Below, piece after piece: positions 4,229 to 50,167 of a DNA stretch of 64,000 nucleotides; the stretch's first letter is position 1, and each line of letters starts with the position of its first letter. The position numbers and the translations under genes were made by a program. Origin of the DNA: a virus. The stretch lies in the UHGV virus genome UHGV-0049167, one strand, 5' to 3'. The notes beneath the pieces are model-generated. The model was not told the DNA's origin, made no database searches, and worked only from the letters and a program-made list of their open reading frames with translations.

Positions 4229-4242
4229 ACAATAAAAACAAT

Positions 4243-5461: not shown

Positions 5462-5462
5462 A

Positions 5463-7071: not shown

Positions 7072-7284
7072 ATGTACCAGAAAATTCTTTTAGTTTCGGT
7101 ATGGCTGGTTGTTTCACTTCTCGTCGTTTCGCTTTTATGTGAAATGCTCTCGGCAAGCGACACCATATCCAACATGTGCGGCTTCGTGCTTCTGATAGCA
7201 TACGCCCTGCTAAGCGTCAAGACACGGTTATTTACAAAATTCAAGTTCAATAACAAAAACAACAACAAAATCAAGTTCAAATGA
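7072..7284 (+). CDS. small membrane protein (partner of SPFH protein, NfeD-like role possible)
   Basis: Internal ATG; hydrophobic LLVSVWLVVSLLVVSLL and GFVLLIAYALL; ATGA overlap with next gene. Confidence 0.4.
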   Translation: MYQKILLVSVWLVVSLLVVSLLCEMLSASDTISNMCGFVLLIAYALLSVKTRLFTKFKFNNKNNNKIKFK

Positions 7285-23501: not shown

Positions 23502-24557
23502 ATGAATTTTGCCAAATTTTACGATATAAGTGATTGGGTAGAAAAGCCCTACATCAACACAAAAGGTACCAGGAACAAATGTATTGTCATAGACCCAGAT
23601 AGTGGTATTGAATATTATTTCAAAACCTCTATCCACAAAGGTGCTATGGACTACAAGACTGAGTTCTGGTCAGAAATCATAGCTTCCAAAGTTGGGCAAT
23701 ATCTGAATTTCAATGTGCTGGATTATAACATAGCCAAACATAAGGATGAAGTCGGTTGCCTCTCTATGTCTATGATAAAAGACGGTGAATGCCTTACGGA
23801 GGGTATAAGTCTACTGACAGGATTCGACAATACTTATCGACCGTCAGACAAAGATTCATATTCACAATACACTTTCCATTTCATTGAAGAGGCCATAAGC
23901 AGTTTCGGATTGTCAAAGAACATTGACGATGTTATCAGGACCATTATCTTTGACTCTATAATAGGGAATAGTGACAGGCATCAAGAAAACTGGGGGTTCA
24001 TCACGCCTTTTCAAGAAAAAACATTAACAAGGGAGGAGGCAAAAAGTTTTCTTGGAAGATTGAAAGAGCGCATCAAGAAGATACAGGATTCATCGCGTGG
24101 CAACAACGGAAACGTTCCTTTAGACGTCCACGTCAAGATACGGATTTTGCAAATTGTCGGTAAATACGCTCCGATATATGACAGTGGATGCTGTCTCGCA
24201 CGTGAAAAAAACGAAGGAGCCGTAAGGCAAATGCTTAATGACAAAATAATGTTCGACAGTTTTGTCAACCGTGGGCAGTCTGAAATACGTTGGGACGAAA
24301 GTGGGAGAAAGCTAAACCATTTCGAGTTGATAAAGCGCATAAAAGAAAAATATTACGAAGTCGTTACCGATACAATCAACCAAGTCATCGCCGTTTATGA
24401 TGAAAATAAGATACATGACATTGTATTTAACATAGACAAGCGCCTTCCTGACGTACTGAAAGCTGACGAACGTTGGGCTTTGTCTGATGACAGGAAAGAA
24501 TTGATATGTAGATTGATTGACGAACGTTTTAACAGACTAAAAAACATTATATTATGA
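23502..24557 (+). CDS. HipA-like (PI3/4-kinase fold) serine/threonine kinase domain protein
   Basis: Catalytic-loop-like DSIIGNSDRHQENWGF and APIYDSGCCLA; 351 aa, lacks long HipA N-terminal region; AT-rich upstream region. Confidence 0.6.
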   Translation: MNFAKFYDISDWVEKPYINTKGTRNKCIVIDPDSGIEYYFKTSIHKGAMDYKTEFWSEIIASKVGQYLNFNVLDYNIAKHKDEVGCLSMSMIKDGECLTEGISLLTGFDNTYRPSDKDSYSQYTFHFIEEAISSFGLSKNIDDVIRTIIFDSIIGNSDRHQENWGFITPFQEKTLTREEAKSFLGRLKERIKKIQDSSRGNNGNVPLDVHVKIRILQIVGKYAPIYDSGCCLAREKNEGAVRQMLNDKIMFDSFVNRGQSEIRWDESGRKLNHFELIKRIKEKYYEVVTDTINQVIAVYDENKIHDIVFNIDKRLPDVLKADERWALSDDRKELICRLIDERFNRLKNIIL

Positions 24558-27040: not shown

Positions 27041-28096
27041 TTATATTAGTGGCTTTAATGATATTATCCTAGCAGATTTGCCGAATATCTTTATCAAGAC
27101 ATCCTCGGGCAAGCCTGTGCTTTCCGAAATCATGCTGATTGAATACCCCAATGTGTCCGATACCAGCCTATATGCCTGCTCAAAGACGGTAGGGCTGTCA
27201 ATAGGCACTTCGTAAGGTTCTTTCTTATTCCAATGACGTCTGCTGAACTCCATTCTCATAGACTTGTACTTCTCACTTGCAATGGCGTTTATGTTTTTTG
27301 CCTTTTCCAAAAGTGATGCCATGGAAACAAGCCAATACCGTTTCAGCTCAGGGAACTGTCCGAGTCTGACATTGTGCAAGGCGTTTCTGACAACTTGGGA
27401 GGGGAGAAGGAACTCCGATGCAAAAGCGTTCGCCTCTTTCTCCTTGTCTCTAATGCTGAATACCGGGAAACTTGGGCACTCGTGCATCAGTATGTGTCCC
27501 AGCTCATGTGCAAGCGTAAACCTTACCCTGTCGTTGCTTCTGTTCCTGTTCACGATGATAAGATGATTGCCTGCGTCAGTTATCAGGGAAACCCCGTCAA
27601 ACTCGTCGTTAGGACTGTCCCACATGTAAATGAATACCCCGTTTCGCTCAAGGAATTTGCAAATATCGGATATAGGCGACATGCCGAGCCTGTATTTGTT
27701 CCTTATGTGCCCGGCAAGTTCCTCCGGGCTTATGCCGTTGTCCATGTCGTAGTATCCAAATGAATAGTCAGGTATCTCGACAAATTCACTAAGCCAATCA
27801 AAACAATACGCAATCAGGGATATTGTCCTGTCTATCTCGTTGCGTGTCTTTACGGTTATGGTAGCCTTTTTCCTGTAATGCTTGCTGTCTACCTTGTTCA
27901 CAATATTCATGTCAAGGAATTTCATCGGGAAATCAAGCGTGGACATAATCAAACCAAGCATGTTGTCAGACAGCCCGCCAAACCCCTTTTCGTATTTTGA
28001 CAGGTTGGATTGCGACAGCCCTTTGACTTTTGCCGCGAGTGCGGTTTGCGTGAATCCCCTGTATTCCCTTGCGAATGTAAGCTGCTCACATTTCAT
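27041..28096 (-). CDS. XRE-type HTH domain fused to ImmA/IrrE-family (M78-like) metallopeptidase domain
   Basis: N-terminal HTH FTQTALAAKVKGLSQSNLSKYEKG; HExxH-type FTLAHELGHILMHE. Confidence 0.8.
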   Translation of the reverse strand: MKCEQLTFAREYRGFTQTALAAKVKGLSQSNLSKYEKGFGGLSDNMLGLIMSTLDFPMKFLDMNIVNKVDSKHYRKKATITVKTRNEIDRTISLIAYCFDWLSEFVEIPDYSFGYYDMDNGISPEELAGHIRNKYRLGMSPISDICKFLERNGVFIYMWDSPNDEFDGVSLITDAGNHLIIVNRNRSNDRVRFTLAHELGHILMHECPSFPVFSIRDKEKEANAFASEFLLPSQVVRNALHNVRLGQFPELKRYWLVSMASLLEKAKNINAIASEKYKSMRMEFSRRHWNKKEPYEVPIDSPTVFEQAYRLVSDTLGYSISMISESTGLPEDVLIKIFGKSARIISLKPLI

Positions 28097-31446: not shown

Positions 31447-32532
31447 TTATTCTGTTGTTTGTTCACTCGGTAATACATAGTCTGCGTCTATATACTTTCT
31501 TATAAATGCCTTTATCTGTTGCTCGTCTAATGAGCGGTCAAAGAGGTAGGCGGAGTAGAAAACTATTCTTGCACATAAACCGTTGTTGGCAACTCTTACC
31601 TTACCGATAGTTACATCGTTTAAATTCTGGCTTTTCAAGCTACCCTTTGATATAGAAATTCCATTATAAGTCGTACTATTTACATATACAATATTTTTTT
31701 CAACTGACGCAGGCGAATCTAATTCAGTACTTGTTCCAAATAATATTATAGCGTTATTGGGATAATCTGTAGAGTTCGGTGCTCTTTCAAAACCTAATAT
31801 GTTGAAAGACGCATTATTACTATTTTGAAGTGAAATTCCAAATGGCAGTGAGATACCTTTGTATGAATAATTAGTATATTCTCTTACCATTATACATGTA
31901 AGTTCGTCAATAGTTCCGACTTGAGTTACTCCGTAATCATCCACGCCGTCAAAGACAAGAGCATCGGGGTATTCGGGGAGGAGTTGAATGGCAATATTCT
32001 TAAAATTCCCTTTAATAAATGGAGCTCTATTATAAGGACTATCCGACATTGTAGATTGAGGAACTGTATAAATTCCATCATTACGAATTTCTATATAATT
32101 CCATCCTAAAGAACTTGAACCTAAACAATAATAAATTCGTAAGTGTTCATCGGCATTAAGTCCAATTACTTTTATTTTGTATTCATTCCAAGTCCAATAG
32201 GATGAAATCCTTTCTAAATTAAGTGTCCCTGTAAAATTTTCTATTTTAATAGAAGTTTCAGTAACTTCAAAATTATATGTGTTGTAATTAAGATAGTTTT
32301 TACCATTTAATTTAGTTCTATATCCCCCATACCCGCTCATTTTGCTAAAAGCAAAGTTATTCAGCGTAATATCATGCCCATTACCCGTCAAATCACGCAA
32401 TACATTTCTATCAGCATCATCATTGCTCTTTCCTGCCGCCGACCATGCCGCGATAAGTCCCGGGTAATTTATGTTGCTGTCGCTCTTTTTAAGCGCGTTG
32501 GCTATCATAAGCCTGCGTCTATATATGCTCAT
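31447..32532 (-). CDS. putative tail fibre / receptor-binding-like structural protein
   Basis: 361 aa, Asn/Ser/Thr/Tyr-rich beta-like composition; assignment by context. Confidence 0.4.
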   Translation of the reverse strand: MSIYRRRLMIANALKKSDSNINYPGLIAAWSAAGKSNDDADRNVLRDLTGNGHDITLNNFAFSKMSGYGGYRTKLNGKNYLNYNTYNFEVTETSIKIENFTGTLNLERISSYWTWNEYKIKVIGLNADEHLRIYYCLGSSSLGWNYIEIRNDGIYTVPQSTMSDSPYNRAPFIKGNFKNIAIQLLPEYPDALVFDGVDDYGVTQVGTIDELTCIMVREYTNYSYKGISLPFGISLQNSNNASFNILGFERAPNSTDYPNNAIILFGTSTELDSPASVEKNIVYVNSTTYNGISISKGSLKSQNLNDVTIGKVRVANNGLCARIVFYSAYLFDRSLDEQQIKAFIRKYIDADYVLPSEQTTE

Positions 32533-34223
32533 GCCGCACCTCCCATGACTGCTATATTATTGACTATGCTCACTTGATATGTCTTGCTTGCTTCTATGGT
32601 GCTGTCGCCTATCCACTTTACGTCATCGGGCAGCGACAATGTGGTCGGAGTCGCACCGCTTGTGAACTCGAACATGTATTCCTCCCGTATATCCGTGTCT
32701 CCGCTGGCGAATGTAAGTGTGAGGCTTGTCACCTCTCCGAACACATAGAGTATGCCCGGCTTCAGTTCCTGTGTCACCTCGCTGCCCTCAACCTCCACAC
32801 GTCCGCGCATATCGTCAATTTCCTTTTTTGTGTAATATCCCGAAAGGTCTGTTGCCGGATAGAACCCACGGCTCATACTCAGACCGTCATCATGACCTTC
32901 GGTGCACCAATATGCCATCTTGTCCTGTACCGAGTAGAACAGGCGGTTATGATAGCCTGTGTCGTACGCATCAGGGCTATCCCAAAAGCCTGTTCTATTC
33001 CACTCCGAATAAAGCTTCCCTGTCTCTGATTTGTAAGCATAGAAAGCATATCCGGCAGAAGTGCCTGTGAATTCAGCGCAAACACCGTCGAAATCATCTC
33101 CCGCGTTCTCTCCGTGGGCAATCTCATGTGACAGCTTCGTTGAAATCCATAGCAGCGGAAGCACATGCCTTCTGTTCAAATCACGTACGGGCATCGTCCC
33201 TCCGCCTCCGAGCAGTATGTCCTCATCGCTCTTGCCCTTGTATGCAAATGTCTTGCTCCATTCGGGAATAGAATCTGGATAGTCATTGCCCAAGGAAAGA
33301 CTGACGCGCTTTTTGATATATTGAGGCTGGTCTCCATTAAAATCAACCATCCCCCTGCAGAAGGAAATTGTATAATGATTGTGATGGTCAATTGCATGCT
33401 GGTCAAGAAAATCTATAAACAGATGTTCCCTTGGGTCAATCTGTCCATAAAGCCGATGCACTCCGGAAAGAACTCTTATGTCGCTTACGTCAAATCTGTA
33501 GTCTCCAGCATAAGGTAAATCTCCAAAAATTACATTATCCCCGTAACTTTCATCTTTGTTGTATGCCAATCTCGGTAGATATAAGGCATAGTTTTCTTTT
33601 AGACATTCTTCTGCTGTGGCAGGATATGATAAGTCAGTGCTCTTTAATGCAATTCCTATCATGCCATCGTATCCACGAAGCCAAACCGGATGACCCTTGA
33701 CAAGTATCTTCTTTTTCAAGGCATCGGTGTCTCGCATATCAATCACCTCATGCCCTCCACCCGTAATAAGAGCCGCCCATTCCTCTTCCGAGCCTTCATA
33801 CCCGTGCAGCACGGCTATCTCATAGGCGGACAGACCGTTGCCCGGCACACTGATGTCCATGTCAAGCTCGATGTTCACGGTGCCGGTCTCCACACCCTCG
33901 TCGCTGCTTATTGACACAAGCTCGAAGGCGCATGCCTCATCCACGGTGTTGCGGTTGTTGTCGCCCCAATCCTCGGTAAGTGTCACCGTATACGCGCCTG
34001 TCCACTGCTGCTGTGTGCCCGTCCATCCTGCTATCAGCTCCTCTCCTGACTGTACTACAGGAAGGCTCACGCTGCCGAGAATGTTGCGCAGCATAAGACC
34101 TATTTTCTTTCCCTCGAGGTTCTCTGCACCGCCACGGCGTGTAAGCCTTATGCGCAGAATGATGTCGTTTCCTATTCTTATACGTCTCATGGTCTGTCTC
34201 CTTTCTTTACTGTTCCGGCTCAC
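32529..34223 (-). CDS. putative tail/baseplate structural protein
   Basis: 564-aa ORF; overlaps neighbours in operon. Confidence 0.45.
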   Translation of the reverse strand: MSRNSKERRQTMRRIRIGNDIILRIRLTRRGGAENLEGKKIGLMLRNILGSVSLPVVQSGEELIAGWTGTQQQWTGAYTVTLTEDWGDNNRNTVDEACAFELVSISSDEGVETGTVNIELDMDISVPGNGLSAYEIAVLHGYEGSEEEWAALITGGGHEVIDMRDTDALKKKILVKGHPVWLRGYDGMIGIALKSTDLSYPATAEECLKENYALYLPRLAYNKDESYGDNVIFGDLPYAGDYRFDVSDIRVLSGVHRLYGQIDPREHLFIDFLDQHAIDHHNHYTISFCRGMVDFNGDQPQYIKKRVSLSLGNDYPDSIPEWSKTFAYKGKSDEDILLGGGGTMPVRDLNRRHVLPLLWISTKLSHEIAHGENAGDDFDGVCAEFTGTSAGYAFYAYKSETGKLYSEWNRTGFWDSPDAYDTGYHNRLFYSVQDKMAYWCTEGHDDGLSMSRGFYPATDLSGYYTKKEIDDMRGRVEVEGSEVTQELKPGILYVFGEVTSLTLTFASGDTDIREEYMFEFTSGATPTTLSLPDDVKWIGDSTIEASKTYQVSIVNNIAVMGGAA

Positions 34224-35550
34224 CGTAGCCGTTTATATCTGTGTCTGCCTCTATATATGCTCTGAAACCGTTCGCTTCCTGCGGTTCCTGAAGATGATAC
34301 ACAAGACCTCCTGTTCCAAGCGTGTATGCTCCGGCAGGCACTGTTGTTTTGCAGTAGAATCCCTTCATTGTGACCCCATTATATGTCACCGGCAGCGGTT
34401 CCGTCTCCCATTGTGAGACATTGGCTATGATATACTCGGAAGCGGGACTGTCACCGCCCGGTTTAAAAAGATACGGCTTGCCAGCCTCAATTGATGTGAC
34501 TTTGGTAAAGTGCAAGGTTTTCCCTTCTATTGAAGTATATTCCGAAACCTCCGTCCCTTCACCGAATACGCCCGCTATGTCCGTCACGTTGAACGGCAGG
34601 CACAAAGAGTGCCAGACACCCGCACCGAACGTCCTTTTAAGCGTAACGGACACTGTCAGCCCGAGCTTTGCGCAGCTCTCTATCACGGTCTGATTATAAT
34701 GTCCGTCAGACGACTGGTCAAGAGTGACGGCAGAGAGTGGGGTGGAGGAGGCTGTCAGTCCGGCAATGTTCTCCGGAGGATATGTGAAATACCATCGGAA
34801 ACCTTTCATCGTGTTCACGCTCACGTTTGAATGGTACAGCTGTCCCGAGCTGAACAGATAGCATCCCTCGGGCAGAGCGTATATCTTGCCGTATGAAGGA
34901 TGGAACTTAAGTGAGCCGTAAGCAGGCTCAGGCGCGGCAGACACGACAGAGTCTATGTCCTCGAACACATACACACTGTCTGATGGCGGGTCAGCTGTCG
35001 GGACGACGACATAGCATTGTCCGGCATCCATGCCGTCCGTCACTTCGGTAAGCCGCAGGTTCGGGTCGTCTGTCAGACCTCCGTATGCGTAAACTTTTGT
35101 CCCCTCACCGAACGCAGCCGCAATCTGTGCGGTGCTTAAAGAGAACGGCAGTACGAACGTGTTGTAGATGTCCTTCTTGACACCGCTTCGTTTTACCTTT
35201 ACCGTCAGTCCGGTGCCTTCCACCGCGTTTACGGGTGTCTCGGACTCCTCGTCAAGAATCAGCTCGGATGTGCTGTCACGCACGCACGCCTTATCCGGCA
35301 GGCTCTCGCATTCAAGGCGCATCCGCAGCCCTTTGTCAATTTCCAGCATATGGAGCATGACGCTTCCTTCGCGCCTCTCGTATCTCGACCAAGTATGCGT
35401 CACGGTCATTCCCATGCCCGGCAGTCCCGCATACAGTGTGATACCGCTTTCCGGCTCACCGTCTATCTGTAATATTCCCTCACCGCCATGTGTCCATTCC
35501 GCATGCCACATTCCTCCGGTTTTGGAAAAGTTCAATGTTGTCAATGTCAT
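34207..35550 (-). CDS. putative tail structural protein with internal duplicated module
   Basis: Internal ATG at 35550 preceded by AGGAGG; repeated FxLPFxxxxxxIAxxFGEGTxV modules. Confidence 0.5.
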   Translation of the reverse strand: MTLTTLNFSKTGGMWHAEWTHGGEGILQIDGEPESGITLYAGLPGMGMTVTHTWSRYERREGSVMLHMLEIDKGLRMRLECESLPDKACVRDSTSELILDEESETPVNAVEGTGLTVKVKRSGVKKDIYNTFVLPFSLSTAQIAAAFGEGTKVYAYGGLTDDPNLRLTEVTDGMDAGQCYVVVPTADPPSDSVYVFEDIDSVVSAAPEPAYGSLKFHPSYGKIYALPEGCYLFSSGQLYHSNVSVNTMKGFRWYFTYPPENIAGLTASSTPLSAVTLDQSSDGHYNQTVIESCAKLGLTVSVTLKRTFGAGVWHSLCLPFNVTDIAGVFGEGTEVSEYTSIEGKTLHFTKVTSIEAGKPYLFKPGGDSPASEYIIANVSQWETEPLPVTYNGVTMKGFYCKTTVPAGAYTLGTGGLVYHLQEPQEANGFRAYIEADTDINGYGEPEQ

Positions 35551-35572
35551 ATACTGTCCTCCTGTTTTTTTA

Positions 35573-38500
35573 TCATAAATATATGTTTCCGTTCGTGTCC
35601 GTGTCATCATCGTCAATGCGATTAATCTGTATCATCTGCACCCTGTCATAATTCATGTATACGGCTGTTGTCGTTATCATGCTGCCGTAGTATACGGTGC
35701 CGCTTCCCGGTTGTACGATTCCGATGTTCGAGAATCTGTATACATTGCGCGAGCACCATTGTCTGGAGAAATCCACCTTTTCCGCATAGTCATCCTCATA
35801 TCGCGTATAGTCCATTGGCGGTGTGTCCATAGGCGAGCCTATCATGAACGATTCCGGATTGTCCTGCGCCCACATTCCTGTGACAGCCTGTGCCGTGGTC
35901 ACATTACCCTGCTCCATGAACCATCTGCCGTTCGCGGCTCTTGCAATCTCCGGAGTGGAGGCGTAGTCACCGCTGAGATATGTGTCGTTTACGCGCCCTG
36001 CAAGATACATGTACAAAGGTGTTTTCGTGTACACATGACCATATTGGAATATGGTGTTCATTATCTGTTTGTTGCCAACGATGTCGCCTACGGTGGAGAA
36101 TGTGGCCCCTGTCAGCTGCAGGCGTCCGTATTTGCTGCTGGTCTCCCACCGTTCTTCCGAGACATCCTTGCCGGACAGTCCCCACGGTCCGAGGTCATAA
36201 AGGAACGTACCGTCATTGTCATAATAGGACAGTACCATGTATGAGCCGTTATATCCCATTTTGATGTTGGTCACACCGTTAGGGTTCTTTACCTCAATCA
36301 GTCCTCCCTTTATCTCCACATGCCCCTGTCCTTCGTCCATCGTGCGGAGCATCACACCTGTAAGGGTGCCCGCCTCGTCGATTGTGGTGACTGTCTCGCC
36401 GGAGTTGTTCTGTATCTCGAAGTTGTCGGCAGTGACCTTTATGCGCTTGTGTTCAATGTCTATCCCTGTCGCCTGCAGCTCGTCGCGCGTGATTGTCTCC
36501 GAACGCCAGTCGGTCGCCTCGCTGCCTTTCTCCAGCTTCACTCCGCATATCCAGACCTCTCCCTGTGCAGAACTGTCCGGCATGAGCCGTGCCGCTATCA
36601 GGCTCTTCCCTCCGCTTACGTCATTGCGAGTGCTCCATGTCACCTGATAACGGTTCCATCCGCTTTCAAGCGTGAACTGCACGAATCCGTCTGTCACACC
36701 TGTCTGGTTCTTCGTCCCCGGACTTGTGACCCAGTCGGTGCAGTTCGGATAGAAGTACGAGCCGATGCTGCCTGTGCCGCGCGCCCAGAATGAGAGCGTA
36801 TACTGTACGCCCGGCTCGGGCACCACGTTGCGCCATGTGATGACGTCCTTGTATGATGTCCCGGCTTCGTTCACACCGTGTGCCACGCTTATTTTTTCTC
36901 CGTAAGGTGTCGTGTATGCTCCTGCCTCTACGGTATCCTGTACGGTGCATTGGCTGAAGTCCGATGTTCCTGGAAGAAGATTCGGTCTTTTAAGCCTGTC
37001 CTCCGCGCTGAGTCCCCAGTCTGTCGCGTCCGCACCTGTCTCTATCTTGGGACGCGACACGGACGAGTATCCTGATGATATGCCCTGTATATACAGGTTA
37101 CACTGCTCTACCGACGCCACAGCCTTGTCCTGTATCCTGTGTGTGGAGCTTATGCGTCCCTCGAACGTGTCCGTGGATGTTATCTGCCTCCATGTCCCGA
37201 GATACTGCGTACTGCCGTCGGCATACCGTATCATGGGCTCCATGCCGATACGTCTGTTGCCTGATGCTGCCGGAACCGCAGATACGGTCTTGACAAGACA
37301 TGATACGGTTATTGTCTTTCCGCGCAGGCTTGACACATCCCCGATTGTGTAGACCTTGTTCCCGTTCCCTGTCAGGAATATGTCAGGAGTGGTCACCATG
37401 TTTCCGTCCTTTGCCCCAAGATAGCCGACTTTAAGGCTTATGCTGTCCGTCTCAGCCTTAATCTGCGATGAGAGTGCCATGGACGATACAGTGAAGGACA
37501 GGCGGCAGCTCACACTGCGGGTCTCCCCGCCCAGCGTTGCCTGTGCCGTAATCTGTACCCATCCCGCTCCGTATGGCACCGAACCTCCCCAGTCTGCCGT
37601 ATATGTCCCTATTGCGGTTATTGTAACCTGTGCCCCGTTGCGTGACGCAAGACAGTGCATAGGCTCTATGGCGGTAATTGTGACAGTCATCTCGCGCGTG
37701 CCGAGCCATGCGCGCAGACGTGATGTCGCATCCTGCATGCTCACCACACCGTCACTGTCAGCCTCCAATGTTATGGCGGCAGGGTCAAGTGCCCATGAGA
37801 AGCCGTCCTGCCCGTCCGTGCCGGGTTCACCGTCACTTCCGTCCGCTCCGTCCTCACCGCGTATCCGTGTCCACTTATATGAGGTAACGCTTGTCGGGTC
37901 ATATGAGTTGAAGTCTACGCATTGCCCGAGCCACGCGCCCGGTGTCTCACCGTTGTTTGCTGTGAACGTCTTTCCCCCGTCGTCGGAATATTTGATGTGA
38001 AGGTAGCTTGTCTTTCCGTCCGTACCGTTGGTTCCCGGTATTCCCTGCTCCCCATCATACCCTTGGAAGCGTGACCACGTGTAGTCCGAAGGGTCGTCGC
38101 TGTCTGCCTCCGTGAAGTCAACGTATGTGCCGATGTAGAGGTTGGGAACTTCTGACATTGGAGTCCCGTTGGAGTTTGCCGAGTATTTAACATGGAAATA
38201 TGTCGTACGACCGTCCTCTCCTGCGGGTCCCGGAACGCCCTGCTCCCCCTTGTCTCCTTTTTCTCCGGTATCACCCTTTATCTTTGACCATTTATAATCG
38301 GACGGTGTTCCGCTGTCTGTAGGATTCGTGTCTGTAAGGACTCCAATCCAGTCACCGCTGTCCTCTCCGTTGTTTCCGGTAAAGGTGACGCCTCCGTCGT
38401 TAGAGTATTTGATATGGAGATAATATGTCGTGCCGTCAGTCCCATTCACGCCCGGCAAGCCCTGTTCTCCCTGTATGCCTTCAAATCTTGACCAAGTGTA

Positions 38501-41500
38501 GTCAGATGCATCAGTACTGTCTGTTTCTGTAAAATCGACGTAAGTACCTATGTATTTGTCAGGCGTCTCGGTCATGGGCGTACCGCTCGCGTTCGCAGAA
38601 TACTTTATGTGGAAGTAGCTTGTACGTCCGTCCGCACCGGGTGTTCCGGGTATGCCTTGCTCGCCTTGCGGTCCTTGTAATCCTTGAAGCCCCTGCTCGC
38701 CTCTATCACCTTTGTCTCCTTTGTCGCCCTTTATCTTCAACCAAGTGTATTCTGACGAGTCTGTGCTGTCGTCAGCGTTGGTGTCTGTCATGACGCCAAT
38801 CCACGCGCCCGGTGTCTCACCGTTGTTTGCTGTGAACGTCTTTCCCCCATCATCGGAGTATTTGATGTGAAGATAATATGTAAGCCCGTCCACACCGTTG
38901 GTTCCCGGTATTCCCTGCTCCCCATCATACCCTTGGAAGCGTGACCACGTGTAGTCCGAAGGGTCGTCGCTGTCTGCCTCCGTGAAGTCAACGTATGTGC
39001 CGATGTAGAGGTTGGGTGTCTCGGTCATGGGATTTCCGTTCTCGTTTGAAGAATATTTCACATGGAAGTATGTGGTCTTTCCGTCATGACCGGGTGCCCC
39101 GTCTTTACCGGCTACACCGGGAATACCCTGCTCTCCTTGCGGACCCTGCGGTCCCTGTATGTTTCCGGCATTCACCCACTTGTCACCGTCCCACACCCAT
39201 AAGTCTCCGTCTATGAGCCATGCGTCACCGACCGCGTTGCCGTCCTGCGGGAGTTCGGAAGAGTCATTCTTCGAACCTTTCAGATTGAATGAAGTCCCGT
39301 CCTCTCCACGGAATTTGCTCCATGTATAGTCGGAAGGATTGTCGCTTTCCTGTGCGCTCTCTTTGTTTACGGCTATGCCTATATATTTTGTCGTGTCTGA
39401 AGGGGTCTGATACATAGGCTCACCGTCCGGACTGTCAGAGTAGGCAATCCATGTATAGAGAGTCTCACCGTCCTCGCCCTTTGCTCCCGGCACTCCGTCC
39501 TCGCCTTTTATCTCTGACCAGGTATAGTCCGATGGATTGTCGCTTTCCTGTGCGGTATTCTTGTTATATGCGAATCCAATGTATTTCTTTCCGGAAGGGT
39601 CGTTGGATATGCCTCCTCCTTCAGCGGTGTCGGAATATCTTATCCATGTGTAAAGTGTCTTCCCGTCCTCACCGGACGGTCCTGGTACACCCTGTGGTCC
39701 CATGTCACCTTTCTCACCCTGCTGTCCGTCCATACCTCTGAAACGTGCCCATGTATAATCAGAGGGGACATCGCTCGCTGTAGGGTTAAAATCCACGCGT
39801 GTACCGATAAATACATCCGGAGTCTCACTCATGGGCACACCGTCAGGATTCGGTGAATATCTTATGTGAAAATATGTGGTTTTCCCGTCTGCTCCGTCTT
39901 CTCCAGCCGGACCCTGTATTTTTCCTGCGTTTGCCCATGCGCTGCCGTCCCATACCCACAGATAGCCGTTCACGAGATACGCGTCTCCTGTGCTGTTCCC
40001 TGTTGGCGGCAGCATGCTCTCGTCATCAACGCTTCCCTTCACAGTGAATGACGTGCCGTCCTTTCCGTCAGTACCTTTAATCCTTGACCATGCATAGTCG
40101 CTGTAGACGAGAGCCACGTCGCTCTCCGTGCGGTCTGTGCATATGCCGAGCATGAGCCAGTCTTTTGCCGTGCTCTGGGATTTGTCCTTTGTCCAGTCGT
40201 CCGGACCGTTTCCCCATGCAAGGTGCGTGTAGCTGACAAGACCGGAAGTGTCCACATCCAGCTCGCCTCTTATCTTATTGCCGTTAGCCGCGAACCATGT
40301 CGTGCGGTACTGGCTTAGAGAAAAACTTGTGATTCCGTTGTATTGCGCGAATGACGGACTCTCCAGCTCGGTATCCGGAGTGGAGTGGGCGGCTATTATT
40401 ATCGCATGGCTGCGCGCTGTGTCGTCACCACGGTGTCCGCACAGACAAACGCTGTCACCCTCTGCAGGCTCAAGGCTGTCAGCCGCGCACGTGGCTTCAG
40501 ACACTTCAATCCAATGGCACTTTCTGTCCTCACCGTCAATGTTCCGTGTTCCGCTCCCTGTTGCCGTGACAAGTCTCCACCATAGTCTGTTTCCTGCATC
40601 ATATGATGTCCCCTCGGCAAGATTGGATGTCATTGCCAGAGCCTGGTCTCCGACCTTCCACATGTTCTGCACGGCTCTGCCGTCGCTGTCCTCCGCCAGC
40701 CACCACAGACGCCATGCTCCGCTTATTCTTTCGACAGAGCGTACCGTGCAGTTAGCAGCGGACAGTATCAGTTGACCTCCGACGCTGTTCAGCTCATCTA
40801 TGACAAGCTCGAAGAAATGTGCCCTTCCTGTCACGGTCAGCGTTTTCATTGTGGCTTCGTCGGCAAGAAGTTTCTTCAGCCGTGCGGTACCGTCCGCATC
40901 TATGCCGTAGTCTCCGTCTCCCACAAGCAGCCCTTTGAGGAATGTTATAATATCCAAGGCTGTGTCCGGACTGTCTTTCCGCAGAAAATACTTCGCGCAT
41001 TGTGCTAAAATGTCACCACGCATGCCATAAGTCAGGGATGTAAGTATCTCTGTTTTTATGGAATCGAGCTGTGCTCTGAATGAGGATTGAGACACGGTCA
41101 GGGTGTCTGTTAAATCCACACTTATTTCATAAAGTATGCTATCATCGGCTTTACAAGTATAGTTGCTGACATACAGAAGATGCTCTTCTTGATTATATCT
41201 TACTGTCAGACGTGTATTTTCATTCAGCAATGAGGTGAAGTCCTCATTTAATGCCAGATATACACGGGAAAATTTTATTGAATATGTGAATTTCTCATCA
41301 TTATTCCCTTTCATGTAAGCAATAAGAGCCGCATCCAGTCTTTTTTCCGCTTCCCGTATGTAGGATTCAGGAAGAGAAATGCCAGTTATGACAAATGTAT
41401 CGCCTATTGACGGACGATATCCTTGTGCCGCGTTCGGCATAATGACACCAAAGGTATCTGTTTCTTTTTTTACGGCTATCCATACTTCATATTCGCTGGT

Positions 41501-43735
41501 GTCCTGCTGGCGTGAAACGTAACTGTTTGTATCACGTGAAGGCAGGATATAGTCTCCTTCATATTTGTCCGCATTAGAACTGTTGACCTTGCGAAGATTG
41601 CCTTGTGCGTCTGTCATGACAGGGTTATAGAATTTGTATCTGTCACCATCGGCATACTTGTCCACCCCGATAACGAAACGGCATGCGGCGCAGTTGCCGC
41701 TTGTCATCTCTATTGCAGCCTCTTCGCTTTCTAATGCATGCTCAAAAATATTGAAGCCTCCACTTCCGTTATATACATGTAGTTTTATATAGAAATATGA
41801 ATGAAGGTATTCGTCACTATTGTCTTTAAGGACATCGCTATCATCCGTATCAAACCGTATGTCAGCTATTTCACCTATCAACTGACCTTGAATGTTTTTT
41901 ATCCCTTTTATTGTCGGGACTATATCTTCAAATGAAGTCGTCCCTTCGTGAGGGTTCAATTCATTGTATACATTATTAAATATATATTTATTTCCTGATT
42001 CATCTTCATCTTCATATGTATTATTGACTGCATTATAGTAGCGTTCCGCTCCTCCACTTTCTCTGTATATAGAGGGCATCAGGCTCTGAGAGGGAGTTAT
42101 CCACTCTCTTCCTGTAATATTAATTATGGCTGGTGTGTGGTCACCGCTGTCCTCCACAACATTCCATTCACCGCCTGAGAAATCCAAATGCGAAGGCGCA
42201 TACGGAACATTGTTTACATCAGACAGCGTTATTCCGCTTTTACTGTATGCGATGTTATTCCCATCTCCATATGAGAAATAATACAGTTCTCCGCCACTTT
42301 TCTGATATGTTATGGATGATTTTGCATTTAACGTCATTCCTATAGTCGCCTGGCTGTTGGTCGCTCCGCTTCCTGAGAAAATGGCGTAAGCAGTCCCTTT
42401 AATCACAACTTGAAACCATCCGCTGGCATGGAAGGTATATTCATAGTCCTTCCAACCTGACAATATTTCTATTTTATCACTTATAGAATCATCCTCATTC
42501 GGATTATAGTCGTCTCTCCATATTCCAATACTTATTGTATTTTTAAGGTTTCTGTCCCCTCCGTAGCTATTTGACGATACTTTCTGCCATGAAAGTGATA
42601 AATCTGCGTCACCGCTGATTTTTCTGAAAGTCAAAAAGGATTCATTGAAAACAAACCGAAGTTTGTCTCCCTCTTGTGCATTTATTTTCAGTCTGAAAGA
42701 TATCGTGATATAGGTGTTGCCTATACCTGTTCCAAAATAGAATATGTCTGTAGCCTCCCTGTTGCTTATTACTGTGGGGCTATATGCATTATAAAAAGGA
42801 GCAGTCTGTCCGATGTCTGCGCTGGCATCCGTGTTTGACACCTTTTTAAGTCTATATGCGGTATATGGGGAACTGTTGTATTTTAGTATCTCATTTAAGG
42901 AGATATCTGCTACTTCAGATTTGTCAATGTTCTCTGTGTCGAAACTCGCGTTGCCCTCCGCACTCATGTTTGGATAGTACCATGGCAAATTTTTTGTGCC
43001 TCCAGTACCGGTTATCCTCGTGATAATCCTGTAATTGGCATTTGTTTTCTGAATAGACAACAGAGCATTGTCATTACCATATTCTATCGGAGTTGTTATT
43101 ACATTCTCTGTATATCCTACGTGGCAGGTCTTCCCTGTCCAATAATAGGCGAGTCCATATACATTATATATATCCTGTAGAGCCTCTGCAATGAACTTGT
43201 CTTCTATACTGACATCTTTGCCCTCAGAAGTTATGCCTTCGTCAATGACAATATGGAAACCTTCTTGTTTGTCTTTATTATATAGACCGCTGTAAATCAA
43301 TGAATCGTTGAGCCGGGCAACAAACTCGTGTACATCACCGAAGAAATGTACTTTAGATGTGTTGCTTCTGTATCGGTCTTTATATTGGGCTTCAGTATCT
43401 TCTGTTACCACATCAAGGAAATACACGTTTTCAAGTATCTCCCTTTCACTTACAAATGTGACCTCATGTTTGTATGTTATCTCAGAATTGTCTTTGGATG
43501 ATGACGGCTTTTGCCTTATATAATACTTCTCTCCGCCAAATTCTATATACTCGTTTAATGTCCATTCATTGTCAAGACATCTTGGGAATTTCAATGTAGC
43601 CGTGAAGGTCGGTGCGCCGCCCATGCGTTGTGCGTCATAGGTGTATGTACCTATGACCGCTTTTTCTGTAGACGAAGGAAAATATTCTTTCACTCCGTTT
43701 GTGTCACGCATTATGTATAAGCTCTTCTTCTCCAT
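35573..43735 (-). CDS. giant 2720-aa structural protein with collagen-like Gly-X-Y tracts and tandem ~85-140-aa modules; putative tail fibre / host-recognition protein
   Basis: Uninterrupted 8163-nt ORF; GPQGVPGPSGEDG, GDKGDKGDRGEQGLQGLQGPQGEQGIPG; repeated YTWSRFQGYDGEQGIPG...YYLHIKYSDDGGKTFT modules. Confidence 0.8.
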   Translation of the reverse strand: MEKKSLYIMRDTNGVKEYFPSSTEKAVIGTYTYDAQRMGGAPTFTATLKFPRCLDNEWTLNEYIEFGGEKYYIRQKPSSSKDNSEITYKHEVTFVSEREILENVYFLDVVTEDTEAQYKDRYRSNTSKVHFFGDVHEFVARLNDSLIYSGLYNKDKQEGFHIVIDEGITSEGKDVSIEDKFIAEALQDIYNVYGLAYYWTGKTCHVGYTENVITTPIEYGNDNALLSIQKTNANYRIITRITGTGGTKNLPWYYPNMSAEGNASFDTENIDKSEVADISLNEILKYNSSPYTAYRLKKVSNTDASADIGQTAPFYNAYSPTVISNREATDIFYFGTGIGNTYITISFRLKINAQEGDKLRFVFNESFLTFRKISGDADLSLSWQKVSSNSYGGDRNLKNTISIGIWRDDYNPNEDDSISDKIEILSGWKDYEYTFHASGWFQVVIKGTAYAIFSGSGATNSQATIGMTLNAKSSITYQKSGGELYYFSYGDGNNIAYSKSGITLSDVNNVPYAPSHLDFSGGEWNVVEDSGDHTPAIINITGREWITPSQSLMPSIYRESGGAERYYNAVNNTYEDEDESGNKYIFNNVYNELNPHEGTTSFEDIVPTIKGIKNIQGQLIGEIADIRFDTDDSDVLKDNSDEYLHSYFYIKLHVYNGSGGFNIFEHALESEEAAIEMTSGNCAACRFVIGVDKYADGDRYKFYNPVMTDAQGNLRKVNSSNADKYEGDYILPSRDTNSYVSRQQDTSEYEVWIAVKKETDTFGVIMPNAAQGYRPSIGDTFVITGISLPESYIREAEKRLDAALIAYMKGNNDEKFTYSIKFSRVYLALNEDFTSLLNENTRLTVRYNQEEHLLYVSNYTCKADDSILYEISVDLTDTLTVSQSSFRAQLDSIKTEILTSLTYGMRGDILAQCAKYFLRKDSPDTALDIITFLKGLLVGDGDYGIDADGTARLKKLLADEATMKTLTVTGRAHFFELVIDELNSVGGQLILSAANCTVRSVERISGAWRLWWLAEDSDGRAVQNMWKVGDQALAMTSNLAEGTSYDAGNRLWWRLVTATGSGTRNIDGEDRKCHWIEVSEATCAADSLEPAEGDSVCLCGHRGDDTARSHAIIIAAHSTPDTELESPSFAQYNGITSFSLSQYRTTWFAANGNKIRGELDVDTSGLVSYTHLAWGNGPDDWTKDKSQSTAKDWLMLGICTDRTESDVALVYSDYAWSRIKGTDGKDGTSFTVKGSVDDESMLPPTGNSTGDAYLVNGYLWVWDGSAWANAGKIQGPAGEDGADGKTTYFHIRYSPNPDGVPMSETPDVFIGTRVDFNPTASDVPSDYTWARFRGMDGQQGEKGDMGPQGVPGPSGEDGKTLYTWIRYSDTAEGGGISNDPSGKKYIGFAYNKNTAQESDNPSDYTWSEIKGEDGVPGAKGEDGETLYTWIAYSDSPDGEPMYQTPSDTTKYIGIAVNKESAQESDNPSDYTWSKFRGEDGTSFNLKGSKNDSSELPQDGNAVGDAWLIDGDLWVWDGDKWVNAGNIQGPQGPQGEQGIPGVAGKDGAPGHDGKTTYFHVKYSSNENGNPMTETPNLYIGTYVDFTEADSDDPSDYTWSRFQGYDGEQGIPGTNGVDGLTYYLHIKYSDDGGKTFTANNGETPGAWIGVMTDTNADDSTDSSEYTWLKIKGDKGDKGDRGEQGLQGLQGPQGEQGIPGTPGADGRTSYFHIKYSANASGTPMTETPDKYIGTYVDFTETDSTDASDYTWSRFEGIQGEQGLPGVNGTDGTTYYLHIKYSNDGGVTFTGNNGEDSGDWIGVLTDTNPTDSGTPSDYKWSKIKGDTGEKGDKGEQGVPGPAGEDGRTTYFHVKYSANSNGTPMSEVPNLYIGTYVDFTEADSDDPSDYTWSRFQGYDGEQGIPGTNGTDGKTSYLHIKYSDDGGKTFTANNGETPGAWLGQCVDFNSYDPTSVTSYKWTRIRGEDGADGSDGEPGTDGQDGFSWALDPAAITLEADSDGVVSMQDATSRLRAWLGTREMTVTITAIEPMHCLASRNGAQVTITAIGTYTADWGGSVPYGAGWVQITAQATLGGETRSVSCRLSFTVSSMALSSQIKAETDSISLKVGYLGAKDGNMVTTPDIFLTGNGNKVYTIGDVSSLRGKTITVSCLVKTVSAVPAASGNRRIGMEPMIRYADGSTQYLGTWRQITSTDTFEGRISSTHRIQDKAVASVEQCNLYIQGISSGYSSVSRPKIETGADATDWGLSAEDRLKRPNLLPGTSDFSQCTVQDTVEAGAYTTPYGEKISVAHGVNEAGTSYKDVITWRNVVPEPGVQYTLSFWARGTGSIGSYFYPNCTDWVTSPGTKNQTGVTDGFVQFTLESGWNRYQVTWSTRNDVSGGKSLIAARLMPDSSAQGEVWICGVKLEKGSEATDWRSETITRDELQATGIDIEHKRIKVTADNFEIQNNSGETVTTIDEAGTLTGVMLRTMDEGQGHVEIKGGLIEVKNPNGVTNIKMGYNGSYMVLSYYDNDGTFLYDLGPWGLSGKDVSEERWETSSKYGRLQLTGATFSTVGDIVGNKQIMNTIFQYGHVYTKTPLYMYLAGRVNDTYLSGDYASTPEIARAANGRWFMEQGNVTTAQAVTGMWAQDNPESFMIGSPMDTPPMDYTRYEDDYAEKVDFSRQWCSRNVYRFSNIGIVQPGSGTVYYGSMITTTAVYMNYDRVQMIQINRIDDDDTDTNGNIYL
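37931..38146. repeat. ~216-bp direct repeat, copy 1 (inside giant gene)
   Basis: Near-identical to 38801-39016; last ~125 bp identical by eye. Confidence 0.85.
38801..39016. repeat. ~216-bp direct repeat, copy 2 (870 bp downstream of copy 1)
   Basis: Near-identical to 37931-38146. Confidence 0.85.
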
Positions 43736-45219
43736 CAGGCTACATTGTTTATAGGTGCATTTTTGTTTGTGCCATCCGTAGTCTTGTTCCGTTTTGACTC
43801 TTCAGCCAATCTCATTTCCTCATCAGGAGTGGAAACGGTATTTTTTTCAATTCCCGTCTTAGTGGAAATGATACCGGATCCTTTCAGAGTGCAAAGCATC
43901 TGGTTATAAGTATTCTCATCGAACGGCTGCCACATTTTAAACTTGCAGGATATTTTCATTCTGGCAAATTCTGTTACCGCATTCGGATTCTCACCTTTAT
44001 TTACAAGTTCTTTAGCCAGTCCTTCCTTGAAAAGTCTCGCATGTTTATCCGCAAAATTCTGCCATTCTATTACGTTTTGAGCCGCACCTTCTATATCGAA
44101 AGAACGTGTTATTTGCATTGCCAGACCGGAGATGTCCCCGCTTGACTTAACATCCTTGGGAAGGATGAATGTTACGGATGCTCCTATCTGAATCTTGTCA
44201 AGAATGTCTTGCATCGCATTAAGCATTCCTTCATTTGTAGGTGGAGAGAGGAACTTTGCGTCTCCCTTGCCGTCAATCGATGCGTCTTGAAGCATAATTG
44301 AACCTGCTATTTGACGGGCGTCTTCCTTAAAACGCCCTTTGAGATATAAAATCCCCCATCCATGACGCTTTTCTATTACAGTAAAGATGTTGTAAATAAT
44401 CTCAAATGTTTCTATCAGATTCTGGACGTTGTTCCATGCGACATCACCGCGCTTTGTTATAAGCGGTATCTCACTGAAGCCGTGAGCCTCTTGGCTCTCT
44501 ATATGCCAACCGTCAACGTTCGTCAGACGGTACAGGTTCGTGTCGTCGTATGCGTCTATGTGCTGCACGTTGTCACCGTCGGCATAATATACACATTCCA
44601 TCACCCGGTCACCGTTGTCGTCGTTGTGTGATATGATGACATATCCGTCCTCGTATGATATTATCCGCCCCCTGATTTCACCTTTATAGTTGAAATACAT
44701 CAGAAGTCCGATGTCGCCAAGTCCCATCTGCCCGTATACAGCCTTTGTCCCCAATCCGTCCTGATTGCGCTCTGTCCAATGCCATTTCAGGTCAGCAAAG
44801 TTTTTTTTCAATGTTTCGGAAGGATTGCTGTCATGCAATGTAAATACTCTGGGATTGCCGCATAATGCAAGTGTCTTTTTTTGTCTTATTCTTTCTTGAA
44901 AGGCAAGAGCGGTACGCTTGAACTTTATTTCATAGAATGCTCCGTCATTGGCTTTGACACAAATTGACGGCATATTTTCGTCAAAAAGTACCTCATGGCT
45001 GTCCGGGTCAAGTTCTTTCATGAACTTGTCCTGTGTGACAATGGTCTTCATTACGTTTGGAAGCACAGCCCGACGTAAGGCGGACACATTCTCTTCCGCC
45101 CCACAGTTGTTGTCGTACACGGAATATGTACTGCTGCCTCTTGTAAACGGCTTCTTCATCAGCATTTCTTCCGGATGAGACAACAGCCATTCTACAATTT
45201 CCTTACGTGTTCTGTTCAT
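43735..45219 (-). CDS. putative portal protein
   Basis: 494 aa between terminase genes and structural genes; by size and position only. Confidence 0.45.
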   Translation of the reverse strand: MNRTRKEIVEWLLSHPEEMLMKKPFTRGSSTYSVYDNNCGAEENVSALRRAVLPNVMKTIVTQDKFMKELDPDSHEVLFDENMPSICVKANDGAFYEIKFKRTALAFQERIRQKKTLALCGNPRVFTLHDSNPSETLKKNFADLKWHWTERNQDGLGTKAVYGQMGLGDIGLLMYFNYKGEIRGRIISYEDGYVIISHNDDNGDRVMECVYYADGDNVQHIDAYDDTNLYRLTNVDGWHIESQEAHGFSEIPLITKRGDVAWNNVQNLIETFEIIYNIFTVIEKRHGWGILYLKGRFKEDARQIAGSIMLQDASIDGKGDAKFLSPPTNEGMLNAMQDILDKIQIGASVTFILPKDVKSSGDISGLAMQITRSFDIEGAAQNVIEWQNFADKHARLFKEGLAKELVNKGENPNAVTEFARMKISCKFKMWQPFDENTYNQMLCTLKGSGIISTKTGIEKNTVSTPDEEMRLAEESKRNKTTDGTNKNAPINNVA

Positions 45220-48988: not shown

Positions 48989-50167
48989 ATGAAATTTGAC
49001 TTTAATAGTTCAAGATACGCCAAATTCTTTTCCGACAAGAGTAACAGGCGTTTCTTGCAGACATTCATTGATACGGAAGGTATCCTTTATACAAATTATG
49101 GTTGGTATCTGACGCAGGGACGACGAGCCTCTGCACCGACGCCTACTGATAACAGTGGTGTAGCCACGTTCACGGTCAAAGCCCGTAAGGCTGAAGCCGC
49201 TCCGCTTATGGACATGCGTGCTCCACTTGGTGACAGCAACCAGATGGATAAGGAAGGTCTGAGTTTCTACAGCGCGACCATTCCCGATTTCATCGCCCCA
49301 GGTTTTGTGGAGACTGCCATGGAACGTGAGTACCGCATCCGTCAGTTTGAACTGTTCGGTAACGATGCAGACATCGTAGCACAGTGGGTACATGAAGTAC
49401 AGATGCAGAAAGATTCTGCTGATGCCACTATGAATTATATGACCGCGCAACTTATGACCACAGGAAAGATAGATTACAGTACTATCGGACGTGGCATTAA
49501 AGCTCCGTTACATAAGGCAGACATCCCTGCGGAGAATTTTGTCAAGGCGGGTGAGAAAATATGGACTGCGGCTGACTGTAAGCTGCTTGAGCAAATGAAG
49601 AACATAGAGGACGCATACCGTGAGAAGCGCAACTATACCGGTGCGCTCGTTTGGCAGGTACCGCGTAAGATGTACTTTGAGATTATTCTCGAAAATGCAC
49701 AGGTTAAAGAACTTATCGCAGACTATAAAAAGAATCCACTGGCTTATCAGGCTACTACTGAAGGTCAGTCGTTCACAGAAGTCGCTTTCCGGCAGGCTGT
49801 AATAGACTATCAGGGTGTTTCGCCTATTGAGGTCGTTACTGAGAAAGAGCGTAACAAAACTCACACATCAGACACTTTCATCCATGGATGGAAAGAGAAC
49901 GTGGCGGTGCTTCGTCCAGCCGGAGACGCTGTCGAGTTTGAGTACACTGAAAATCTTGACCAGATAATGTTCAAGAAATATGGCTCCAAGGCTATAACCA
50001 AGGTGTTTGCCCAGACAAACAACGGGTTGGCTACCCTTGTGAATACGACACTTAACAATGGACAATATCAGGAATGGCATACAGACCTGATGATGTCAGC
50101 ATGTCCGGCTCTCATCGAGTTCCCTGACCATCTGATTGTAGACACATCAACAGCCGACACGGAATAA
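48989..50167 (+). CDS. putative major capsid protein
   Basis: 392 aa, size and position typical of HK97-fold capsid protein. Confidence 0.5.
   Translation: MKFDFNSSRYAKFFSDKSNRRFLQTFIDTEGILYTNYGWYLTQGRRASAPTPTDNSGVATFTVKARKAEAAPLMDMRAPLGDSNQMDKEGLSFYSATIPDFIAPGFVETAMEREYRIRQFELFGNDADIVAQWVHEVQMQKDSADATMNYMTAQLMTTGKIDYSTIGRGIKAPLHKADIPAENFVKAGEKIWTAADCKLLEQMKNIEDAYREKRNYTGALVWQVPRKMYFEIILENAQVKELIADYKKNPLAYQATTEGQSFTEVAFRQAVIDYQGVSPIEVVTEKERNKTHTSDTFIHGWKENVAVLRPAGDAVEFEYTENLDQIMFKKYGSKAITKVFAQTNNGLATLVNTTLNNGQYQEWHTDLMMSACPALIEFPDHLIVDTSTADTE

Follow-up and report, generated by a model that had tools for sequence, protein, structure and literature searches.

How siphophages of gut Bacteroidales recognise their hosts is little understood, and annotation is lacking for most of their structural genes. 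Here we ask what is encoded by the giant gene of the virus genome UHGV-0049167, of which a stretch of 64,000 nucleotides (nt), referred to below as the window, was analysed. An earlier, sequence-only reading of the letters had described a single ~8.2-kb open reading frame (ORF) with collagen tracts and repeated beta modules. This description was borne out: the ORF list and translation gave an intact product of 2720 amino acids (AA) with no internal stops. The ORF runs on the minus strand (43735→35573), a point on which the earlier reading was silent. The results presented below suggest, with a probability of about 0.75, that the gene encodes the tail-tip protein (baseplate hub, Tal-type) of a gut Bacteroidales siphophage, extended at its C-terminal end into a single central tail fibre.

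35573–43735, minus strand: giant hub-fibre gene, encoding the proposed Tal-like protein with a C-terminal central fibre (ORF listing and translation)

The N-terminal part has a predicted baseplate-hub fold

The first ~1165 residues were divided into four regions as follows.

42956–43735, minus strand: first conserved half of the hub, AA 1–260
42116–42952, minus strand: variable beta-rich domain inserted in the hub, AA ~262–540, the non-conserved stretch of the family alignment
41036–42115, minus strand: second conserved half of the hub and helical neck, AA 541–900, with the densest run of invariant family residues
40241–41035, minus strand: proximal stalk, AA 901–1165, which holds the recombination breakpoint at 40966 (AA 924)

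At least 668 metagenomic homologues of the N-terminal 1166 AA were found, with sizes of 1300–2030 AA; the source name of one of them is 'tail protein [Caudoviricetes sp.]'. Conservation in this family was strong at AA 1–260 and 540–900, while AA 262–540 were variable; the insert is absent in homologue P0068 and replaced by another sequence in P0014. The AlphaFold2 model of AA 1–1166, obtained with a 51-sequence alignment, had a mean predicted local distance difference test (pLDDT) score of 79.2. In this monomer model the insert was all-beta (pLDDT about 85), helices were placed at AA 790–810 and 885–900, AA 901–985 were of low confidence and AA 988–1150 were beta-rich. When the model was submitted to Foldseek, the top 22 matches were hub/Tal proteins, including hubs of contractile injection systems, and T4 gp27 appeared at ranks 39–40 with weak E-values.

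Two methods match the N-terminal ~900 residues to baseplate hub/Tal structures, and the model indicates that AA 1 to ~900 have a gp27-like baseplate-hub/Tal fold with the variable beta domain inserted at ~262–540. The counterpart domain of phage 80alpha forms a trimeric ring at the baseplate tip and is related to T4 gp27 (PMC7048315). The sequence-only reading, which had called the product a fibre, was therefore right in that but incomplete: because the first ~900 residues are predicted to be a hub, the protein is better described as a tail-tip hub with a C-terminal fibre than as a free-standing fibre. A head or neck fibre, which the position of the gene after the portal had brought into consideration, was rejected on the basis of the hub fold.

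Collagen-like tracts alternate with beta modules

Downstream of the stalk the protein continues into an array that was recognised by Pfam matches.

37796–40240, minus strand: array of Gly-X-Y tracts and beta modules, AA 1166–1980 (PF01391 and PF21470 matches)
38621–39073, 38204–38620 and 37796–38203, minus strand: the last three A-G6-B units of the array

All collagen-type sequence is confined to AA 1221–1980. Tracts with 4 or more Gly-X-Y triplets number 10 (216 residues, 4–12 triplets each), and lowering the minimum to 3 triplets brings the number to 11 (225 residues). Shuffled-protein controls gave a mean of 4 and a maximum of 36 Gly-X-Y residues vs. the 216 observed, and the Pfam Collagen profile PF01391 scored 64.9 bits against a cut-off of 27.2. 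Between the tracts lie 12 small beta modules, ten with the pattern 'T.Y.HI.YS...YIG..D....SDY.W...G' (47–55 AA) and two with the pattern 'GDAYLV..W.W.G..W...G.IQG'. With Gn standing for n Gly-X-Y triplets, A, A', B and beta0 for the 47–55-AA modules and C for the 45-AA module, the order is beta0 - G3 - C - G4 - A - G9 - A' - G5 - A' - (GEDGTS) - C - G9 in the first part and [A-G6-B-G12] - [A-G6-B-G8] - [A-G6-B-G7] in the last.

The whole-protein score for PF21470 (BppU-like_C) was 50.5 bits vs. a cut-off of 27, summed over many partial matches (profile positions 2–25 of 59), and a single two-module segment reached 26.3 bits. A profile of the ten modules matched one solved protein, the Tuc2009 'minor structural protein 5' BppA (5e7t_B, E 3.7e-5), aligning to BppA residues 6–18 and 199–230. 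In BppA, the N-terminal (3–29) and junction (186–229) segments pack together and flank the carbohydrate-binding domain at residues 30–185 (PMC4742702). The modules of the window, at 47–55 AA each, have no carbohydrate-binding module (CBM) insert; since the matched BppA residues are the CBM-flanking segments, we regard these modules as 'empty' BppA-type stems without a CBM. Many PHROG tail-fibre families match the array, with E-values down to 1e-170, so the module type is widespread; at the same time, the array is absent from most of the N-terminal homologue family. We infer that the Gly-X-Y tracts, which are short at 9–36 residues, could form a triple helix, the stability of which would depend on flanking trimeric modules.

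The distal C-terminal region

The end of the protein was divided into two regions.

36491–37423, minus strand: probable tandem CBM-like jelly rolls, AA ~2105–2415 (Pfam, PHROG and Foldseek signals)
35576–36490, minus strand: distal C-terminal region, AA 2416–2720, including the conserved motif TGIDIEHKRIKVTADNFEIQNNSGE (12 weak homologues)

Only 12 C-terminal homologues (27–32% identity) were found among 5.8 billion proteins, and the columns of the TGIDIEHKRIKVTADNFEIQNNSGE motif are invariant across these 12. PF02018 (CBM_4_9) matched AA ~2307–2375 with 20.2 bits, which is under the cut-off of 25.9, and phrog_19846 together with phrog_5983 ('tail protein') covered AA 2136–2415. When the C-terminal 746 AA were modelled with AlphaFold2 from an alignment of 13 sequences, the mean pLDDT was 39, with values of 60–79 only at AA ~2265–2410. 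Foldseek searches with this poor model returned tandem CBM22, CBM4, CBM16 and BppA structures, which we take as hints only. Two CBM-like jelly rolls at AA ~2105–2415 are thus likely but not established by these models and profiles. For AA 2416–2720 the model pLDDT was about 25, and no fold could be assigned to the last ~300 residues.

Genome context of the giant gene

The window is that of a siphophage, and it carries genes for a major capsid protein, a 1915-AA tape-measure protein, TerL and an SPP1-type portal.

43735–45219, minus strand: SPP1-type portal, directly upstream of the giant gene in the direction of transcription (PF05133, E 4e-23; phrog_64)
48989–50167: major capsid protein, on the arm carrying the tape measure and small tail genes
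53267–59014, plus strand: tape-measure protein of 1915 AA, on the divergent arm (phrog_9959, E 8.6e-98; PF20155 TMP_3 on the orthologues of relatives L001 and L004)

The arm with the giant gene has the order TerL, a 178-AA gene, portal and giant gene, followed by genes of 469, 564, 361 and 218 AA. The portal stop and the giant gene start form a TGATG junction, in which the TGA overlaps the ATG by 1 nt. The textbook siphophage order is tape measure, distal tail protein (Dit) and Tal. Compared with it, the position after the portal is atypical, as the sequence-only reading had stated, but within the lineage it is not: the TerL–178-AA gene–portal–hub order recurs in the four relatives L001–L004, with homologues 98%, 42%, 36% and ~40% identical, and a similar order is found in C3_41T2LP, a cultured Bacteroides uniformis phage with TerL, portal, three small genes and a 2498-AA 'tail protein'. 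On the evidence of gene order, the post-portal position is a conserved trait of the lineage. Location directly downstream of the tape-measure and distal tail protein genes, a feature of membership in the Tal group, was not found; in the window and in L001–L004 the gene lies on the arm opposite the tape measure. The ORFs that follow the tape measure are short (317, 168 and 176 AA), and the one of 317 AA, at 59553–60506, gave no informative Pfam, PHROG or PDB match.

Contigs of the relatives in metagenome-assembled genomes were binned mostly to Prevotella and other Bacteroidales, and TerL of the window is 25–28% identical to TerL of Bacteroides and Parabacteroides phages. A megablast search with 20 kb around the giant gene against 50,697 phage records gave no match, and the LoVEphage paper (PMC8525569) contains nothing on the giant protein.

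Tail length generally follows a rule of about 0.15 nm per tape-measure residue. By this rule the 1915-AA tape measure predicts a very long tail of roughly 290 nm.

DNA repeats inside the array

Two segments of the array are repeated at the DNA level.

38801–39016, minus strand: near-identical repeat copy 1, AA 1574–1645, identical to copy 2 at 203 of 216 positions
37931–38146, minus strand: near-identical repeat copy 2, AA 1864–1935, 870 nt from copy 1

The sequence-only reading had reported two nearly identical segments of ~216 bp with further diverged copies, and the alignments agree with it. The two segments are identical at 203/216 positions and open with an unbroken match of 123 nt; in 50 codon-shuffled controls, exact repeats reached at most 16 nt. 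A third copy at 38343–38632 is 65% identical, and a further module pair (39320–39388 and 39518–39586) is 77% identical. The only long repeats of the 64-kb window are those inside the array itself.

The near-identical patch does not correspond to a whole repeat unit. It starts mid-A, halfway through one module (AA 1574/1864), and ends mid-B, halfway through the module that follows (AA 1645/1935), and such crossing of module boundaries points to gene conversion or recombination and not to duplication of a whole unit. The remaining modules share 54–74% amino-acid identity and 30–46% identity at third codon positions; because the former is high and the latter low, we regard them as ancient modules with a fold under purifying selection and not as recent duplicates. 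By these comparisons, only the 216-nt patch appears recently homogenised.

Targets of diversity-generating retroelements are common in Bacteroides phage fibres. Hypervariation of this type was considered and dropped, as no template/variable repeat pair is present in the window; a scan that covered ten large ORFs gave no match to a reverse transcriptase.

Length variants among close relatives

Three nearly identical relatives, all short-read metagenome assemblies, carry shorter forms of the array. ENA ERZ16268247 and ERZ16268265 are among the source samples.

L001: 95–96% identical to the window; lacks one 151-AA A-B unit and 12 AA of Gly-X-Y tract (163 AA in all); carries a 7-nt tandem duplication
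L006: 96–98% identical to the window; lacks 975 nt (325 AA), joined at the 10-nt microhomology TGACGGAAAG; carries a 43-nt tandem duplication
L020: 99% identical over the hub and upstream genes; 618 AA missing, with one A-B unit left; carries a 20-nt deletion in the hub

All array deletions in these relatives follow the module boundaries in register, the pattern expected of recombination. The crossover in L001 lies inside diverged B modules that share no long k-mer. L020 combines the same 975-nt loss as L006 with a loss of exactly the 870 nt between the two near-identical repeats, which is the loss that a crossover between these copies would give. Each gene also has a lesion that breaks the frame. 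In L001, duplication of GGGGAGC in a Gly-X-Y tract (L001:15240–15300, gene nt ~5681) splits the gene into products of 1766 and 781 AA; in L006, the 43-nt tandem duplication falls in a module A (L006:7310–7360); and in L020, the 20-nt hub deletion is at L020:12507–12520. The short-read origin and the frameshifts make assembly collapse possible for the shortened variants, and the L006 product (P0001), at first sight a clean repeat-number variant, was set aside as such on account of the frame-breaking duplication in its contig.

The earlier claim that the repeats can mediate expansion or contraction of the fibre is supported by the comparison, namely by the in-register losses and the exact 870-nt loss in L020, but is not proven by it, as the variants are frameshifted short-read assemblies. 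Real variation of array length is probable from these alignments. Collagen-like repeats have been proposed as recombination hotspots in phages, and a deletion in a collagen-like repeat changed the host range of a virophage (PMC7242381).

Apart from this, the ADNFEIQNN motif is interrupted by a nonsense codon in a further close relative, L021 (L021:~15134). Of the five nearly identical relatives that were compared, four thus carry a broken gene, each with its own lesion; these lesions may reflect either assembly or sequencing error or real inactivation.

Exchange of the fibre as a cassette

Two separate IMG/VR contigs, L021 and L022 (datasets 3300029749 and 3300045988), share the fibre part of the gene with the window. 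L022 matches window positions 33814–40966 with 98.1% identity over 7153 nt without gaps, and L021 matches 32319–40966 with 96.9% identity over 8652 nt. In both, the match starts at 40966 (AA 924) and runs through the whole array and the C-terminus, and upstream of AA 924 both differ from the window. Gene nt 2770–8163 are reproduced in the two contigs with no gaps and 97.8% identity. The L022 gene is an intact ORF of 2355 AA and is preceded by genes for a tape measure (1506 AA) and a tail protein (140 AA); its N-terminus is remotely related to the window hub (hhalign probability 95.7% to AA 540–960). The shared block also extends beyond the giant gene.

32529–35550, minus strand: two downstream genes, of 447/469 AA and 564 AA, travelling with the fibre cassette (inside the block shared with L021)

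The L021 block covers both the 469-AA and the 564-AA gene, and the L022 block includes the 469-AA gene and only part of the 564-AA gene. These alignments show that the fibre has moved recently as a 7–8.6-kb cassette, together with one or two downstream genes, between distantly related hubs and between two genome layouts. Since L021 and L022 reproduce the array without gaps and neither the window nor L022 has a broken frame, the array of the window is not an artefact. For the window, the possibilities of assembly collapse, chimerism or a broken ORF, which the sequence-only reading had left to be checked, are accordingly not borne out.

The 469-AA ORF spans 34207–35616, with a probable ATG at 35550 that would give the 447-AA product. 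For the 447-AA and 564-AA ORFs, comparison with Pfam, PHROG and the PDB gave nothing informative. L021 and L022 contain the interior of the 469-AA gene (window 34227–35448) at 97–98% identity, whereas it is absent from L001 and L020, the closest relatives of the window, with a 35-AA remnant ORF in L001. The product of this gene could be a fibre-associated accessory or assembly protein.

Proposed role and alternative explanations

In the model that we propose, three copies of the protein would form a ring sealing the tail tube beneath the distal tail protein, by analogy with what is known of siphophage Tal proteins. The C-terminal parts would then combine into one trimeric fibre, with the collagen tracts as thin spacers and the beta modules as nodes of registration and trimerisation. 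Collagen rises by ~0.29 nm per residue, and the 225 collagen residues would accordingly extend over about 65 nm, to which the modules would add their own length. A polysaccharide of the host surface would be bound by the CBM-like and terminal domains at the distal end. The repeats and Gly-X-Y junctions of the GACGGAAAG type would serve as in-frame crossover points, at which recombination by host RecA or phage RecT would yield length variants. Candidate genes for such recombination are present in the window, and a contribution from them is possible.

8957–11937, plus strand: phage RecT (293 AA) and PD-(D/E)XK nuclease/FtsK-like ATPase, candidate recombination machinery (PF03837, E 1.9e-45; PF12705; PF01580)

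RecT is followed here by a 700-AA fusion of a PD-(D/E)XK nuclease and an FtsK/HerA-like ATPase, which is an unusual RecT partner.

A further step, which we put forward tentatively and rate as rather unlikely, would be that the central fibre is length-adjustable on a population timescale. Phages that are 95–99% identical elsewhere would carry forms of ~2720, 2557, 2395 and 2102 AA, produced by in-register recombination at module/Gly-X-Y junctions, possibly with the phage's own RecT, and the length would tune the reach through Bacteroidales capsules that differ in thickness. To this would be added the very recent (97–98% nt identity) jump of the whole fibre, with one or two downstream genes, between lineages with different positions of the hub gene.

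Several results weigh against the proposed role. The hub assignment is fold-based only, because no sequence-level match to any hub family was obtained: Pfam gave no hit for AA 1–1215 apart from weak or irrelevant ones at E up to 1 (P22_Tail-4, E 0.17), Pfam searches with 26 family members found no hub family and only CBM_5_12, in 4 members, and neither the family profile nor the whole protein (phmmer) matched any PDB entry. The gene is not adjacent to the tape measure or to a recognisable distal tail protein, and Dit was not identified anywhere in the window. Peptidase, lysozyme and esterase families were absent in Pfam scans of the whole protein and of ten segments (E up to 1), which covered most of the protein, with AA 1341–1539 and 1681–1974 of the array outside. 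No lytic domain being found, the name Tal is used here without its 'lysin' meaning; a lysin domain is not universal among Tal proteins. As to the fibre, the CBM call is tentative because the C-terminal model is poor (pLDDT 39), and the trimer, a collagen triple helix made by tracts of only 3–12 triplets, the virion location and the receptor are all predictions. Finally, each shortened variant also has a frameshift (7-nt duplication, 43-nt duplication or 20-nt deletion), and short-read assemblies can collapse an exact repeat as long as 123 nt.

The remote position from the tape measure would also fit a lateral (side) tail fibre or a receptor-binding protein on the baseplate, with a different protein acting as the hub. 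The small genes without assigned function after the tape measure leave room for this, and several PHROG matches are named 'tail fiber protein' or 'host range and adsorption protein'. These PHROG 'fibre' matches, however, are all in the array and none in the N-terminus, where two methods point to hub/Tal structures for ~900 residues; no further gene of the window was recognised as hub-like, and the distant homologue in L022 occupies the canonical Tal position after the tape measure and a small tail protein. We therefore consider a lateral fibre improbable. Even less probable, in our estimate, is that the giant ORF or its repeat count is an artefact of metagenomic assembly, through chimerism or a wrongly resolved repeat. 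At 123 nt, the exact repeat is close to short-read and k-mer lengths, and related assemblies disagree exactly at this place, with frameshifts and small tandem duplications typical of mis-joins. Yet the frame is open over 2720 codons, nt 2770–8163 of the gene are reproduced gap-free in L021 and L022, nt 4741–5688 in L006 and nt 1–4818 in L001, and the L001 crossover in diverged modules without a long shared k-mer does not fit such an error.

A role of the array mainly as an adhesin in the gut environment, binding mucus or host glycans in the manner of Ig-like decoration domains and not serving as a spacer for host recognition, was given the lowest weight and seems to us very improbable. In its favour are the relationship of the modules to parts of a carbohydrate-binding accessory protein and the dispensability of the array in most family members. 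The modules lack, however, the CBM insert (47–55 AA vs. BppA CBM residues 30–185), and the array occupies the place of a spacer, with the hub on one side and the distal binding domains on the other. A tail-tip hub extended into one central fibre thus remains the reading that we prefer.

Other observations in the window

The left end of the window has a low G+C content (0.34 in positions 1–2000 vs. 0.45–0.55 elsewhere; region 1–3368) and carries a glutathionylspermidine-synthase-like gene at 2265–3368 (PF03738, E 6.5e-131). This end (1–3368) may represent either host sequence next to a prophage or an auxiliary gene of the phage. On the minus strand, positions 27041–28096 encode a 351-AA protein with a helix-turn-helix regulator and a metalloprotease in the ImmA/IrrE style (phrog_2439, E 2e-74; phrog_87), which hints at a temperate lifestyle. 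A PAPS-reductase-like gene was found at 20859–21815 and a weak HipA_C-like match at 23502–24557; a tRNA scan found none.

In L003, the 36%-identity relative, the gene at the TerL position (L003:5148–7868) encodes 906 AA and not ~540, with LAGLIDADG/Hom_end domains. This is consistent with an intein or a homing-endonuclease insertion; the TerL call in this case follows from syntenic position, no terminase family being listed for the product.

Comparison with known systems

The closest cultured relative is the 2498-AA 'tail protein' of C3_41T2LP (OR296439), with 27% identity over AA 551–1139. Its layout is like that of the window, with divergent head genes, TerL, portal and giant tail protein, except that the portal and tail protein genes are separated by three small genes, which is not the case in the window. 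Further cultured relatives are the Parabacteroides phages PF672P1/P2. A literature search for C3_41T2LP and B. uniformis MB20-41 found no paper mentioning the strain.

Known systems close to the hub are the tail-associated lysin gp59 of the Staphylococcus aureus phage 80alpha (PDB 6v8i) and the baseplate hubs Mu gp44, MuSo2 43-kDa protein and T4 gp27. The 80alpha Tal has a C-terminal SGNH hydrolase and no fibre, whereas the window protein has no recognisable enzyme domain, a hub insertion of ~280 AA and a fibre of 1800 AA. The 47–55-AA module aligns to the N-terminal and junction segments of Tuc2009 BppA (PDB 5e7t chain B; PF21470). In BppA, a peripheral baseplate accessory protein, a 155-residue CBM separates these segments, whereas in the window protein they are contiguous, repeated and separated by collagen.

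In architecture, the closest match is to the extended Tal proteins found in cos and pac siphophages of Streptococcus thermophilus. These have a gp27-like N-terminus, with inserted domains in pac group B, followed by a collagen-like region of 100–500 AA, BppA-like CBMs, a short collagen linker and an unknown terminal domain, and their total length is highly variable (890–2020 AA) (PMC7533335). The order of hub, collagen-like region, BppA-related elements, CBM-like domains (tentative in the window protein) and terminal domain is the same in the window protein and in, e.g., DT1 ORF18 (Moineauvirus/Brussowvirus), and the hub insert at AA ~262–540 is comparable to the hub insertions of the pac-B Tal (PMC7533335). 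Differences are also clear: the window protein comes from a phage of Gram-negative Bacteroidales and is larger (2720 AA), its BppA-related modules are CBM-less stems repeated 10 times, its gene follows the portal and not the tape measure and Dit, and its hub has no detectable sequence similarity. In antireceptors, collagen-like repeats separate domains (PMC5601072) and flank variable host-range regions. Discussion of such repeats as recombination-prone spacers dates back to Duplessis and Moineau 2001 (cited in PMC5601072).

Our results would provide a predicted tail-tip hub and central fibre function for a family of >668 unannotated metagenomic proteins, and suggest that a design of Gram-positive phages, with a gp27-like hub, a collagen-like stalk and CBM-like domains, is found also in phages of Gram-negative gut anaerobes. 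Together, the full-length form, the three shortened ones and the single transfer of the cassette make up a natural series for studying fibre length and cassette swapping in relation to host range. Current understanding is not overturned by this: the design is already known from dairy streptococcal phages, and the window offers a large and well-documented example of it.

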